A stretch of DNA of 64,000 nt. Origin: a virus (lineage: Duplodnaviria > Caudoviricetes). The position numbers and the translations under genes are program-made. The DNA lies in the IMG/VR virus record IMGVR_UViG_2562617096_000005; one strand, given 5' to 3'. Under the pieces are notes generated by a model. It had not been told where the DNA came from, made no database searches, and saw only the letters and a list, made by a program, of their open reading frames with translations. Of the stretch, positions 10,782 to 14,220 are shown in pieces. How positions within the stretch are numbered: the stretch's first letter is position 1; the number at the start of each line of letters is the position of its first letter.

Positions 10782-11234
10782 TCACTCATTTTTCAATATC
10801 TCCTGTACAACAGTATTTACTAACTTTCCATCAGCCTTACCTTTTAAGCTAGGCGTAATTACTTTCATAATCTGACCTTTGTTCTTAGTAATGAGTTCAA
10901 TATTATTTTCTTCTACAAGCTGGATAACATATCTTTCAATTTCTGATTTATCCATCATTGTAGGAGCAATCTCTTTTAATATTTCAATTCTTAATGTGAA
11001 TTCCTCTAATTGTTCCAATCTGTCAGAAGGACAAGTATCTAACATTTCTGTTGCTGTTTTGAGTTCTTTAAGAATAGCAGCATTAACGATTTCTTCTGAA
11101 ATGTTATCCTTACATCCTTTTTCAATTGCCATGTTTTTAGCTGTTGAAAGGACAGAAGAGAGGACTTCTTTTTTTAATTTATTTCCTGCTTTCATTGCAG
11201 TAATCATTTGTTCTCTAAGTGTTTCTATTGTCAT
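10782..11234 (-). CDS. GatB/YqeY domain protein
   Basis: AMKAG N-terminus; GQIMK...LKGKADGKLVN C-terminus. Confidence 0.9.
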   Translation of the reverse strand: MTIETLREQMITAMKAGNKLKKEVLSSVLSTAKNMAIEKGCKDNISEEIVNAAILKELKTATEMLDTCPSDRLEQLEEFTLRIEILKEIAPTMMDKSEIERYVIQLVEENNIELITKNKGQIMKVITPSLKGKADGKLVNTVVQEILKNE

Positions 11235-11274
11235 TTTTATTATACTCCTTTTATTTTTGTGTATATTGTGAAAT

Positions 11275-11504
11275 ATTTCAATCCACTTATATATGTAGAA
11301 TGCATCAATATGATTAAAAAAATATCATTGGATTTTGAGGATTTCAATCCACTTATATATATAAAATGCATCAGATGCCAGAAAAGAAACACTGGTGGCA
11401 GATGTGATTTCAATCCACTTATATATATAAAATGCATCCTACGGATTTAAGCCTTTCCGTTGCCAAAAGTAGATTTCAATCCACTTATATATATAAAATG
11501 CATC
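11275..11504 (-). CRISPR. CRISPR mini-array 1: four 32-nt repeats, three 34-nt spacers
   Basis: Repeats at 11275, 11341, 11407 and 11473; minus strand GATGCATTTTATATATATAAGTGGATTGAAAT; the leader-distal repeat (11275) is the degenerate one. Confidence 0.93.
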
Positions 11505-11715
11505 AGCAAATATATATAAGACTTATCTATTATCATTGTGCATTTTATACATATTTGTGGTTATAAAAGCATTATCTGTTTTCGAATAATTAACATATTG
11601 CTATGATTAACTATCGTACTAACTGATTTCTTTTATCTACTTCTGGTGCGAATCTATTAAGAAATATATGTTCACTGTCTAATCGCACCAAGGTGGGGTT
11701 GAACCTCCTACCTAT
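11505..11715 (-). ncRNA. Leader / putative tracrRNA of array 1 with anti-repeat
   Basis: Anti-repeat at 11539-11560 matches 19/22 nt of the repeat; GGTGCGA...TCGCACC inverted motif; paralogous to 12067-12275. Confidence 0.65.
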
Positions 11716-11838
11716 ATTTTATATATAATATTTATAATATTTATAATATTAGTCATGTTATTTTACTTGTCTGAGATATAATAATCTTACCTATGTAAGT
11801 TCTATCTATAATTTATAGGCTACCGCCCTAGACAGGTA

Positions 11839-12066
11839 ATTTCAATACACGCATGTATGTAAATTACATCTCTATTGTTTTAAACGCTTTAGTGTACTAA
11901 AACTTATTTCAATCCTCACATATATGCAAATTACCTCGCAGCCAGAAAAAATACTGGTGGAACTTCTGATTTCAATCCGCACATATATATAAATTACCTC
12001 TAAAAAAGAGATATTCCATTTTAGCACCCCCTTGATTTCAATCCACACATATATGTAAATTACATC
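11839..12066 (-). CRISPR. CRISPR mini-array 2: four 32-nt repeats, spacers of 35, 31 and 34 nt
   Basis: Repeats at 11839, 11906, 11969 and 12035; consensus minus strand GATGTAATTTACATATATGTGTGGATTGAAAT. Confidence 0.88.
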
Positions 12067-12275
12067 AGCAAAAATACATAAATGTGACTATCATATTTTG
12101 TATAATTTACATAATGTTATGGTTATAAAAGCAATATTTTGTTTCGTATATATAGTGATAGTAATCATAGTATATATACTACTATCAAATTTCTTTTATC
12201 TACTTTAGTGCGAATTGCCATGTAATTTATGTGTACTTTATATTCGCACTTGGCGGCGTTGAACCTGCAACCATA
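12067..12275 (-). ncRNA. Leader / putative tracrRNA of array 2 with anti-repeat
   Basis: TAATTTACATA at 12103-12113 matches the array-2 repeat; AGTGCGAAT...ATTCGCACT hairpin; begins right after the nuclease stop codon. Confidence 0.65.
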
Positions 12276-12280
12276 TATTA

Positions 12281-13685
12281 TTAAGCAATAGATTTTTTAT
12301 ATTTTTTCTTTGAAATATTTAAAATATTTAAAATATTTATTGCTGCATTTATATCTCTATCATGTTGTATACCGCATTTGGGACAAATCCACTTTCTTAT
12401 TTTTGTATCTTTTACCTGAGTATTTACAAATCCACAGCTACTACATGGTTGAGTTGATTTATCGTATCTTCCGATTGCAACAACTGGAACATTATATTCT
12501 TCACCTTTTCTTTTTAACAGTGCTAAAATTTCTCCCATAGCTGCGTCTGATAAATTATTATGTTTCACTCTTGTTTTTCTTGACATTTTTCATCATATCC
12601 TTTACAGATAAATTTTCGATTCCTATAAAGCTTGACTGTCTGATAACATCTAAAACCATGTTCTCCATGTGATGTTTACGCTGTCTGGCTACTTTTCTTT
12701 CAAGCTTTGCGGCTTGTAGTTTGGTTTCCTGATAACGTTTTGATGGAAGAGTATCATGGTCAACTTTATATTTTTCTCTGAATTTAATATTTGCAAAACC
12801 TTCTCGTCTTGAAAGTTGTCTATGTAGCTGTTCTCTATGCTTTTGAACTTCGCCATGTTCTCCATTTTTAAATCTTGGATTACTATATTTTGTTCCATCA
12901 GATAAAATCATTAAATCAGTAACGCCAACATCAATTCCTATTTCTTTTTTATTATCACTGTCTTTAATAAGTTTATATACATTCTTTAAACAAATCTGTA
13001 TAAAATAATCTCCGCAGTTGTCTTTTTTAATAGTGAAGAGGTGAGCTGTACGCTTATGTAGTTCACAATATTCTTTGAATGTCATGTTGCAAGTTTCATC
13101 AAATCTTAGAATTCTAAGATAATTTTTCATTCCTCTTGCTTTGATCCGTCCAACTTTATTTAGGTTGAGATGTACTACATTGTCGTTAGTTTCATTGAAA
13201 ATAATTTTGCTTAATGTCTCCTGATACGTATAACTTCTTCTTGGATGCTTCTTTGAGTAATAAGGGGCTTTACTGCTTTCGATTGGTCGCTTTACACCTT
13301 TTCCATTTGTTTTCTTTTTCTGATTGCCTTCACTTACTTGAGCGTCTAGCCTTTTTGATAAGTCTCTTTTAAAAACTCCATTGTTACCGGATAGAGCAGA
13401 AGCAGGGATAATAGAAATACTAGGTCGTTCTTCTCTGAGTTTTTCTAAATAATCTTTTTTTATCATAGTATTAATATTTGGAAAGTGTATCTTTTGTTTG
13501 CTTTCCTTGTCTTCACGTTCAGTTGTATTTGTAAGATTAGTAAACATATCGTATACCGCTATGTTGCATGCTTTGTGAAGTTCATGAATAATGGTATCAA
13601 TAGTTTCTTTTTGAGAAGAAGTTGGGTACAATCTTAAATTAATTGTATATACAGGTAATTTTACGTACCGTTCAAACATTGTCAT
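12281..13685 (-). CDS. TnpB/Cas12f-like RNA-guided nuclease (~467 aa), split by a 1-nt frameshift at the A5 run 12586-12590
   Basis: LRLYPT N-terminus; RuvC-I GIDVG, RuvC-II GIENL, CSSC/CPKC zinc finger, RuvC-III HDRDINAAINI. Removing one A joins ORFs 12558-13685 and 12281-12586. Confidence 0.88.
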
Positions 13686-13872
13686 TTTCTCTCCTTTTAA
13701 ATTATCTATCCAATTTATTCCTCATTATACCAACTATAGATGCACCAAGAGCAGCTCCTATTGATAATGCAAAAGCTTTCCAGTCGTACAGATTTATAAT
13801 AGTGGTAAAACATGCAACTTCTAAGCAAAAACCTGCTATAAATAAAAATGTTTTCATTTTACATTTCTCCTT

Positions 13873-14220
13873 TTATTCAAATAATTCTTTTAATATTCTT
13901 GGCTTGTATTTTTTCTGTTTGGTTTTAGAGGCTTTTTCTAATTTACCATTAGCAATACTTTTTAGATTAAATCCATATATTTGACCAAGGATTTCTAATT
14001 CATTCTTAATTTCTCTACGTTCCTTTAATGTATCCTGTAGTAGCTTTGCCATTTTATATCCCTGACAGGCATTAAGCGGATGAAATTCTATATAATGGTA
14101 GATGTCAGTTATTTTCTGGTCTGCAACGGATAACTCATGGATGAGTTGTATTTTATATGCTTTAATGTTTTCTGAGTCTTTCTCTAAAGAGGAGAGTAGA
14201 CTTTTCATGTTTGACTCCAT
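13873..14220 (-). CDS. Conserved phage hypothetical protein
   Basis: DIYHYIEF...NACQGYK...RREIK...YKPR pattern. Confidence 0.7.
   Translation of the reverse strand: MESNMKSLLSSLEKDSENIKAYKIQLIHELSVADQKITDIYHYIEFHPLNACQGYKMAKLLQDTLKERREIKNELEILGQIYGFNLKSIANGKLEKASKTKQKKYKPRILKELFE

Follow-up and report, generated by a model that had tools for sequence, protein, structure and literature searches.

The TranC class of CRISPR effectors was reportedly described by Jin and colleagues (Cell 2025, doi 10.1016/j.cell.2025.09.004) as a step that had been missing on the way from transposon TnpB to CRISPR-Cas12. Here, this class and other related systems are compared with a locus at positions 11275–13685 of a 64,000-nucleotide stretch of phage DNA (the window), part of an IMG/VR provirus record of 92,035 bp (IMGVR_UViG_2562617096_000005; Caudoviricetes). 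TranC, including LaTranC from a Lachnospiraceae bacterium, is represented by PDB entries 9jfo/9jfq and covered, at least in part, by two preprints (bioRxiv 10.64898/2026.03.27.714800 and 10.1101/2025.09.28.678669). LaTranC and the window locus both have a TnpB-sized RuvC effector and, after the gene, a tracrRNA followed by a short CRISPR array. The likeness to TranC extends to the lack of adaptation genes, an origin in gut Clostridia or phage, repeats of 32–36 nt with a median of 4–5 repeats, an adjoining array on the strand of the effector and a guide split into a predicted tracrRNA and a crRNA. However, identity to LaTranC is only ~30%, and the window effector is naturally encoded as two conserved ORFs; further features of the window locus are a leader of the type I-C kind and a set of two cassettes for one effector, each with its own covarying repeat/anti-repeat pair; a sister lineage has three cassettes. 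ISDra2 TnpB (PDB 8h1j/8exa; omega/reRNA) shows the same fold, RuvC D-E-D residues and zinc-finger TNB domain, and in IS200/IS605 TnpB systems the RNA scaffold likewise begins at the 3' end of the gene and carries the guide at the RNA 3' end. In contrast to these, the window locus lacks tnpA, is single-copy and holds a fixed place in phage synteny, and its guides would come from a CRISPR array through an anti-repeat rather than from flanking DNA. Cas12f likewise combines a miniature effector with a tracrRNA located between gene and array, and a short unpaired segment separates its anti-repeat:repeat duplex from the guide, but the fold similarity to it (TM ~0.5) is lower than that to TnpB or TranC.

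The window locus is a variant of the published TranC class with a split effector and I-C-type cassettes. Taken as a whole, it is read here, with a probability of about 0.75, as a TranC-type split nuclease of a phage with two I-C-derived tracrRNA/array cassettes, most likely serviced by the host and likely defensive in role. On the minus strand throughout, a TnpB-like gene (13685–12281) is followed by two guide cassettes, each composed of a structured 'leader' of ~215 nt and four 32-nt repeats, as the original prediction had it in describing two tandem leader and four-repeat cassettes on the same strand downstream of the gene. The absence of tnpA, cas1 and cas2, also claimed there, held for the entire 92-kb record, in which PF01797 (Y1 transposase) gave 0 matches and no Cas1, Cas2, Cas4 or Cas8c was found, the Cas8c search having been validated by a positive control. 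Nor was cas1 present in five records of related phages, of which two have a completeness of at least 90%. The TNB gene occurs once in the 92-kb record and the position of the locus is syntenic among related phages; given this and the missing Y1 transposase, an IS200/IS605 TnpB transposon was rejected. Gene, scaffold and mini-array follow one another in this order at about 30 related loci, spanning 40–100% protein identity, a recurrence far beyond chance. Wherever the sequence of a related locus reached far enough past the gene, an array of 1–6 repeats was present, and homologues without arrays, which had been named as evidence against the prediction, were not encountered among the ~30 loci, all of which carry gene, scaffold and mini-array.

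The effector family was characterized through P0016, a fused homologue 72% identical to the window effector. Its sequence matched LaTranC with an E-value of 1.9e-64 and ISDra2 TnpB with 1e-26. An AlphaFold2 model of P0016 (pLDDT 91.7) ranked LaTranC above all TnpB and Cas12 chains in Foldseek (E 4.7e-36, TM 0.82/0.79, 30% identity), with fold TM values of 0.57–0.61 against TnpB and ~0.5 against Cas12f, the Cas12f chains ranking below TnpB. LaTranC is thus the closest solved relative of the family in both sequence and predicted fold, which supports placing the effector with the published TranC class of transposon-to-CRISPR intermediates, and the proposed TnpB-to-Cas12 intermediate is borne out to that extent, with ISDra2 TnpB and Cas12f behind. 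Membership of Cas12f (type V-F) was rejected on the Cas12f2 profile of NCBIfam (33.5 bits against a cut-off of 450) and the low fold TM, and that of type V-U2 (C2c8) on the V_cas_c2c8 profile (57.9 bits against 350). The two ORFs scored 90.6 and 78.2 bits with IS200_TnpB (cut-off 425) and 90.6 and 74.4 bits with guided_TnpB (cut-off 100), scores that the split itself lowers. No effector homologue was found at 1e-30 in 401 genomes of the Lachnospiraceae-type family, and an alignment scan of species genomes returned only distant TnpBs of Poribacteria. One relative sits in a genome of Blautia caecimuris, and proteins P0003, P0006 and P0007 are encoded on contigs of 447–681 kb.

The effector is encoded by two overlapping ORFs. 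ORF1 (12558–13685, 375 aa; Pfam OrfB_IS605, E 2e-15) contains the WED/REC region, RuvC-I with D252 (codon 12930–12932) and RuvC-II with E357 (codon 12615–12617), and ORF2, in the +1 frame (12281–12586, 101 aa; Pfam Cas12f1-like TNB, E 2e-19), contains the zinc-finger TNB domain (CSSC, CPKC) and RuvC-III with D78 (codon 12353–12355). All three catalytic residues and the zinc ligands of ORF2 are intact, so the RuvC acidic triad reported earlier is indeed present; the ~467-aa protein described with it corresponds to the joined length of the two ORFs but is not encoded as one frame. The 'frameshift' is a 29-nt overlap (12558–12586), which maps in the model to a loop of lower confidence that links the RuvC-II strand to the helix after it. 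Dozens of independent assemblies show the same 375-aa/~100-aa split at identities between 99% and ~50%, both ORFs evolve under purifying selection (ORF2 dN/dS 0.03–0.2), and the ATG start of ORF2 is kept in all split relatives. A Blautia-type clade is split at the same place but in the other frame, stop and start codon overlapping there in the classic ATGA, and the N-terminus of ORF2, MS(R/K)(K/I)(T/A)R, is conserved in both split types. In P0016, the loss of 1 nt within the overlap fuses the ORFs, making the sequence a chimera of both frames. Since the split is conserved to ~50% identity and ORF2 is constrained, the frameshift is, judged from sequence, a conserved split gene and not damage, and the frame repair called for in the original prediction is not needed. 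A literature search found no published report of a naturally split or frameshifted TnpB/Cas12. Most likely, the two products would assemble into one RuvC nuclease.

Cassette A begins directly after ORF2. Its leader (214 nt, 12280 to 12067) contains scaffold hairpin 1 (GGTTGCAGGTTCAACGCCGCC, 12252–12273), which starts 8 nt past the ORF2 stop, hairpin 2 (GTGCGAA...TTCGCAC, 12206–12251) and an anti-repeat (12100–12123) that pairs with the 5' two-thirds of the A-type repeat; mini-array A (11839–12066) follows with four repeats of 32 nt and three spacers of 34, 31 and 35 nt. A promoter-like site (11734–11761), a consensus match only and weak in AT-rich DNA, precedes cassette B, whose leader (~11720 to 11505) carries hairpin 1 (11691–11713), hairpin 2 (11644–11690) and an anti-repeat (11537–11560; duplex z −4.15) that covaries with the B-type repeat. 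Mini-array B (11275–11504), with four 32-nt repeats and three spacers of 34 nt, adjoins the ribosome-binding site of a yqeY-like gene. Each leader carries GTGCGA(A/T)...ATTCGCAC. The repeats have the 3' end G(T/C/A)GGATTGAAAT; GGATTGAAAT terminates seven of the eight in the window, and the exception, the degenerate fourth repeat of array A, ends in GTATTGAAAT. Rfam gave 0 matches within 11000–14000, and the scaffold pattern gave 0 matches in 185,579 species genomes.

A consensus structure drawn from eight cassettes was 95.6% paired, with 15 pairs changed on both sides; slid controls reached 33–46% pairing, and none of 500 shuffles scored as high for the whole structure. Computationally, the anti-repeat and repeat form 18 pairs, 9 of which are changed on both sides. 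Single folds of the two window cassettes gave z-scores of −2.6 and −5.05. The anti-repeat is missing from host I-C leaders: duplex z-scores ranged from −1.7 to −4.7 in the cassettes, against a mean of +0.43 in host I-C leaders, with 1 of 45 below −3. These data support a role of the leader as a tracrRNA-like scaffold whose anti-repeat covaries with its own repeat; the ~210-nt leader originally described is present, but appears to be more than a leader. In the proposed mechanism, each cassette would be transcribed as a ~215-nt scaffold, the anti-repeat of which would base-pair with the 5' two-thirds of each repeat (acting in cis on repeat 1 and in trans on the rest), leaving ATTGAAAT single-stranded ahead of the spacer as in the tracrRNA:crRNA guides of Cas12f and TranC. 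The ribonucleoprotein would then cut DNA matching the spacer beside a 5' PAM.

The leader and array module resembles Bacillota type I-C arrays in its leader hairpin, the leader–repeat junction (T)TTTGCT|G, 32-nt repeats ending in GGATTGAAAT and spacers of about 33–35 nt, and this combination supports its derivation from a type I-C CRISPR locus. A covariance model (R1) built only from 40 host I-C leader hairpins matched hairpin 2 of both window leaders (A: 38.0 bits, E 5.6e-8; B: 37.6 bits, E 7.4e-8) and nothing else in the window. The hairpin was found in 46 of 63 Bacillota I-C leaders, in line with the claim that leaders with GTGCGAA...TTCGCAC are typical of Firmicutes I-C; it had 0 matches in Rfam and no publication on it was found in a literature search, so that it is apparently a conserved element not described before. 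From hairpin to repeat 1, the distance is 141 nt in both window cassettes and 127–152 nt across cassettes, compared with 92–137 nt, mostly 113–137, in I-C leaders. The window junctions scored 6.9 and 7.4 bits (I-C mean 6.5, control mean −5.7). A sister clade (L025–L032) retains an I-C-like GC-rich repeat, the pattern of which matches more than 119 long Bacillota arrays, and Cas8c was found in five of the five genomes tested among those with this pattern. Together with the R1 and junction matches, this favours the earlier proposal of a co-opted type I-C array. The window differs from I-C loci in having its own effector and no adjacent I-C cas genes, in a leader that has gained an anti-repeat and further stems, and in a repeat whose 5' two-thirds carry AT-rich sequence in place of the GC-rich I-C stem, which is lost. 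A search of 185,579 species genomes gave 0 matches to this window-type repeat pattern, leaving no host array in that set that shares the repeat.

Several other explanations of the effector gene were weighed against two assembling ORF products. A single ~467-aa enzyme could be made if ribosomes underwent programmed +1 frameshifting at the stop of ORF1, or if transcription slipped, so that ORF1 and ORF2 were fused; the free ORF1 product would then be a by-product or have a regulatory role. The exact P0016 reading is recovered in three diverged lineages once the first base of the ORF1 stop codon is skipped, and the region is A-rich; however, the P-site codon before the stop varies (ACA, AAA, CAA), no Shine–Dalgarno-like stimulatory element is evident, and both the ATGA overlap of the Blautia-type clade in the other frame and the conserved start and N-terminus of ORF2 count against such joining, which leaves this route unlikely. 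Cas12m, Cas12c and TldR act by RNA-guided DNA binding. A comparable, mainly non-cutting function, in which DNA binding by ORF1 would block transcription or replication and ORF2 would add cleavage under some conditions, is less probable again. Like the nuclease-dead systems, a sister lineage (P0028–P0034) has lost catalytic residues and the zinc finger while keeping its guides. Nested in the split clade is a fused lineage in which the zinc finger and the aspartates of both RuvC-I and RuvC-III are gone but the scaffold and arrays persist and spacers still turn over, so binding alone is a viable function in the family. Unlike them, the window genes retain every catalytic residue, D252 and E357 in ORF1 included, and ORF2 keeps its zinc ligands under strong constraint.

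A frameshifted pseudogene in a decaying locus, suggested by the stop after 375 aa when one sequence is read naively, is hardly credible in view of the same split in dozens of assemblies, the selection on ORF2 and arrays that keep changing, and is refuted as far as the sequence data reach. An error in sequencing was rejected as well, there being no homopolymer at the break in the window version and agreement among many independent assemblies. Only slightly more plausible, and in our view improbable, is that plain viral mini-arrays feed a host I-C Cascade, the neighbouring TnpB-like gene being an insertion-sequence remnant that is unrelated to them or in decay. The use of host Cas proteins by viral mini-arrays is well known (PMC11656645), this phage carries no cas genes, and the likeness to I-C covers the leader hairpin, the junction, the length of the repeat and its 3' handle. 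This reading was rejected on the linkage of gene, scaffold and array in all ~30 loci across the full range of protein identity, the covarying anti-repeat that host I-C leaders lack, a repeat without the I-C stem and matching none of 185,579 genomes, and two ORFs under purifying selection with intact catalytic residues. Dual use of the GC-rich sister-clade arrays by Cascade is possible.

Beyond the TranC-type split nuclease with I-C-derived cassettes, a more far-reaching reading can be offered tentatively and at less than even odds: a natural split-RuvC nuclease joined to a captured I-C leader-array turned tracrRNA and serviced by host I-C Cas1-Cas2-Cas4, that is, a class 1/class 2 hybrid phage CRISPR. 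If this were true, type V arrays could arise by capturing the leader-array of another system and not only by splitting of an omega RNA. That a foreign array was captured, and that the I-C adaptation machinery of the host is parasitised, become concrete hypotheses through the I-C leader hairpin, junction and repeat end and the 5'-TTC PAM reported for LaTranC, which is also the I-C PAM; as a PAM of the window system, TTC is only a lead, by analogy. The retention of two ORFs over deep divergence means either that this member of the Cas12 superfamily is a naturally split enzyme or that frameshifting is regulated, and a split effector is relevant to the regulation of phage nucleases and to split-editor design. 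The pairing of one effector with two or three cassettes of different covarying repeat/anti-repeat pairs bears on guide orthogonality.

By analogy, the system would likely defend the lysogen or the phage against rival mobile elements. None of ~50 spacers could be matched to a protospacer in the 92-kb record, in records of related phages, in INPHARED or in IMG/VR. The individual searches came out empty or no better than chance: blastn-short with 39 different spacers as queries on the 92-kb record and every locus retrieved, pattern scans of IMG/VR, exact or degenerate, for B1, A2/B2 and spacers of two relatives, back-translated KKYWW and KKHWW motif searches, one JGI metagenome scan, and blastn of five arrays against 50,697 INPHARED phages. 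In the whole records of five related phages no protospacer was accepted, and a single marginal match in related phage records, with a 2-nt gap and 3 mismatches, was rejected.

Spacer content changes between close relatives. Contigs L286, L287 and L288 encode an identical N-terminal ORF product (P0015), differ in their proximal spacers and share one distal spacer, and the pattern is repeated in L016/17/19/23 and L159/160/161. These scaffold-proximal differences indicate ongoing acquisition without phage cas1/cas2, although they could in principle arise by recombination between phages and not by integrase action. Most likely, host I-C Cas1-Cas2-Cas4 would insert new spacers in trans, given that the phage lacks cas1, cas2 and cas4 while sibling phages differ in proximal spacers. 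Polarised spacer turnover among near-identical phages without cas1 thus gives circumstantial support to the host-borrowed adaptation that had been suggested for this locus.

The effector gene lies on the minus strand as two overlapping reading frames, followed by the two cassettes on the same strand. ORF1 (13685→12558, 375 aa) matches Pfam OrfB_IS605 (E 2e-15) and NCBIfam guided_TnpB (90.6 bits) and carries the catalytic residues D252 (RuvC-I) and E357 (RuvC-II). ORF2 (12586→12281, 101 aa), in the +1 frame relative to ORF1 and overlapping it by 29 nt, matches the Pfam Cas12f1-like TNB domain (E 2e-19) and holds two CxxC motifs and D78 (RuvC-III). Cassette A starts 8 nt past the ORF2 stop with a 214-nt structured stretch and four 32-nt repeats (12066→11839); cassette B, ~120 nt beyond it, consists of a ~215-nt stretch followed by four repeats (11504→11275). 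The cassettes can be aligned end to end, and their repeat variants and spacers differ. No Y1 transposase, Cas1, Cas2, Cas4 or Cas8c was found in the whole 92,035-bp IMG/VR provirus record. The architecture originally noted, a RuvC protein with three catalytic acidic residues and two tandem leader and four-repeat cassettes, lacking tnpA and cas1/cas2, is thus present. Large ORFs of the window match phage families, two integrases among them, and relatives occur in a Blautia caecimuris prophage and on IMG/VR contigs of 90–220 kb.

Among 5.8 billion proteins searched, 167 relatives were found. The fused relative P0016 (457 aa, 72% identical) matches LaTranC, the characterised TranC of a Lachnospiraceae bacterium (PDB 9jfo/9jfq), at E 1.9e-64, versus 1e-26 for ISDra2 TnpB and 1e-10 for Cas12n/Cas12m. 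LaTranC is also the best fold match of its AlphaFold model (pLDDT 91.7, pTM 0.84), with TM 0.82/0.79 at 30% identity, versus TM 0.57–0.61 for TnpBs and ~0.5 for Cas12f. These matches favour the proposed TnpB-to-Cas12 transitional effector, and homology and architecture place the system in the TranC class, reportedly described by Jin et al. (Cell 2025) as "transposon-CRISPR intermediates". An IS605 transposon was rejected because tnpA is absent and the locus is a fixed, single-copy phage locus, and Cas12f because its profile and fold scores are lower. According to two preprints, TranCs are small effectors whose tracrRNA lies between gene and array; their repeats measure 32–36 nt and number a median of 4–5, adaptation genes are not linked to them, and some members are phage-borne (bioRxiv 10.64898/2026.03.27.714800; 10.1101/2025.09.28.678669), a description that the window locus matches. 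It differs from those descriptions in the conserved split of its effector gene, in having two cassettes per effector (three elsewhere), whose repeat/anti-repeat pairs are distinct and covary, and in a leader-array module of demonstrable type I-C ancestry with live spacer turnover.

The effector had been thought to need frame repair, a view contradicted by the persistence of the split: ORF1-sized products (368–380 aa) recur at 99, 91, 71, 62, 55 and 51% identity, and an ORF2 with a TNB domain follows the ORF1-sized gene at every such locus examined. ORF2 has a dN/dS of 0.03–0.2, indicating purifying selection, and all its zinc and catalytic ligands are intact. In a tree of 88 relatives, with the ORF1-sized class set by length and absence of the zinc motif, 27 of 29 such products fall in one clade of 35 (SH-aLRT 100%), which also includes the fused forms P0016 and P0037, read here as re-fusions, and six to seven fused forms with a dead nuclease. 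What separates P0016 from its split sister is a 1-nt deletion within the overlap. The split point corresponds to model residues ~364–372, the loop of lowest RuvC-lobe confidence (10-residue block means 68 and 76). On this comparative evidence the "frameshift" is a conserved split gene, and its two products would assemble as subunits into the effector (probability roughly 0.6). The rival, a +1 frameshift product in place of two subunits, we consider unlikely, and other explanations share the remainder. In the window-type split ORF2 is read in the +1 frame and overlaps ORF1 by 29–32 nt; in the Blautia-type split it uses the other frame, and the stop and start codons overlap as ATGA. ORF2 of both types has an ATG start and reads MS(R/K)(K/I)(T/A)R...NLSDAAMG.

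The same RNA-like element stands immediately 3′ of the gene in all related loci. RNAalifold, run on eight diverged cassettes aligned together, gave a consensus of five helices: hairpin 1, hairpin 2 (GTGCGAA...TTCGCAC), a long-range stem (GATAAAAG with CTTTTAT) and two helices that form an 18-pair duplex between the scaffold anti-repeat and the 5′ two-thirds of repeat 1, leaving ATTGAAAT unpaired ahead of the spacer. Pairing holds in 95.6% of cells, with both-side changes in 15 of 40 pairs overall and 9 of 18 anti-repeat pairs; none of 500 shuffles reaches any of these measures, and sliding the partner by 1–3 columns lowers pairing to 33–46%. The repeat and anti-repeat of cassette A have GTAAATTA in common and those of cassette B ATAAAATG; folded singly, the two cassettes show the same architecture (z −2.6 and −5.05). 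In L029 (5370–5400) and L030 (5350–5380), loci of a sister clade, a perfect TTGACA-17-TATAAT sigma-70 promoter lies directly 5′ of hairpin 1, so that the scaffold RNA there would have its own start and not be a 3′ UTR product. The predicted "leader" stood as to its I-C element but not as a plain leader, since the covarying anti-repeat identifies it as a tracrRNA-like scaffold.

Repeats of the sister clade (L025–L032) have the form GTCGCA...GTGCGTGGATTGAAAT, and in Bacillota genomes the pattern derived from them matches more than 119 long arrays, the longest with 120 repeats; Cas8c/Csd1, the I-C signature protein, is present in 5/5 genomes tested. At 63 such I-C loci, (A/T)(A/T)T(C/T)GC(T/A) closes the leader right before repeat 1; the window leaders end in TTTTTGCT and ATTTGCT, with scores of 6.9 and 7.4 bits, where I-C junctions average 6.5 and controls −5.7 (1.2% of control windows score at least 6). 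A conserved ~43-nt hairpin, GGTGCGAAT..AAGCGAACAT..ATTCGCACC, occurs in 46 of 63 Bacillota I-C leaders (e.g. L180:1781–1827), 92–137 nt (mostly 113–137) before repeat 1, beginning directly after the upstream stop codon where readable; its extended stem covaries. The window's copies gave no Rfam match and a literature search found no paper describing the hairpin, a possible signal in I-C adaptation or in transcription of the leader. When a covariance model was built from 40 host hairpins, its hits in the two window cassettes coincided exactly with hairpin 2 (38.0 and 37.6 bits; E 5.6e-8 and 7.4e-8). Every related locus searched was also hit, at the corresponding element, and all other hits in 223 kb were palindromic echoes on the opposite strand. 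Host I-C leaders show no anti-repeat (leader:repeat duplex z mean +0.43, 1/45 below −3), whereas window-family cassettes range from −1.7 to −4.7. Together with the shared hairpin, this marks the anti-repeat, hairpin 1 and long-range stem as additions to a leader of I-C type whose length has not changed. Only the 3′ end of the window-type repeat is still that of I-C, and the repeat's AT-rich 5′ part was found in 0 of 185,579 species genomes. Cas8c genomes, junction score and hairpin model all agree with the proposed I-C likeness of repeats and leaders, making a type I-C derivation of the module demonstrable from sequence. The reported LaTranC PAM, 5′-TTC, equals that given for I-C in PMC8406640, which makes TTC a lead, and no more, for the PAM of the window locus.

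At three loci (L286, L287 and L288) the N-terminal ORF encodes one and the same product, P0015 (91% identity to that of the window), and both cassette types are retained with spacers that differ. In L286 and L287 the distal spacer of the B array is shared and the scaffold-proximal ones are not, a polarity repeated in L016/L017/L019/L023 and in L159/L160/L161; such differences are the mark of new spacers entering at the first repeat, as expected of live arrays. All 6 phage records searched, two of them at least 90% complete, lack cas1. In a sample of 121 genomes from the family to which a Lachnospiraceae MAG belongs, 19 have Cas8c, so hosts with I-C do exist. From these observations, our best inference is acquisition in trans, in which host I-C Cas1-Cas2-Cas4 would insert new spacers at the first repeat. 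The proposed borrowing of host adaptation thus gains polarised turnover in phages without cas1, the part played by the host proteins being presumptive. Spacers A2 (11938–11968) and B2 (11373–11406) are related: read in reverse complement they could specify KKYWW and KKHWW, as would suit guides against diverged versions of the same gene. A scan of IMG/VR with the back-translated motif gave no match, and no family spacer had a protospacer in the provirus record, related phage records, INPHARED or IMG/VR.

A fused sister lineage, P0028–P0034 (429–448 aa; L159:3445–6700, L160:3775–6700, L161:585–2280), lacks the RuvC-I aspartate, zinc finger and RuvC-III aspartate and retains as many as three cassettes of scaffold plus mini-array (two 5′ of the gene, one 3′) with spacer turnover; it is probably a phage-carried RNA-guided DNA binder of Cas12m/TldR type. 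Between the TranC cassette and a yqeY-like gene lies a variable cargo site whose gene content differs among related phages (L001:7715–10708; L002:9543–10133 and 11441–11929; L286:5420–6250; L291:820–2961). The L001 cargo comprises isochorismatase-like, phosphoribosyltransferase and NAMPT/NAPRTase genes, resembling an NAD-reconstitution set; LemA occurs in L001 and L002, SIR2 and Macro also in L002, and Thg1 in L286, and L291 has a GmrSD-like gene 5′ of the effector. A related 157-kb phage carries an additional scaffold-like element, remote from the effector, and a second, distant TnpB-like gene (~31–32% identical) just 5′ of the TranC gene (G407:C1:10739–10828; L018 and L021:3209–3775). A C-terminal remnant homologous to the window's 115-aa ORF, which lies 5′ of the effector (13873–14220), is found 3′ of the array in L002 (7704–7828) and L003, a displacement that points to rearrangement around the cassette.
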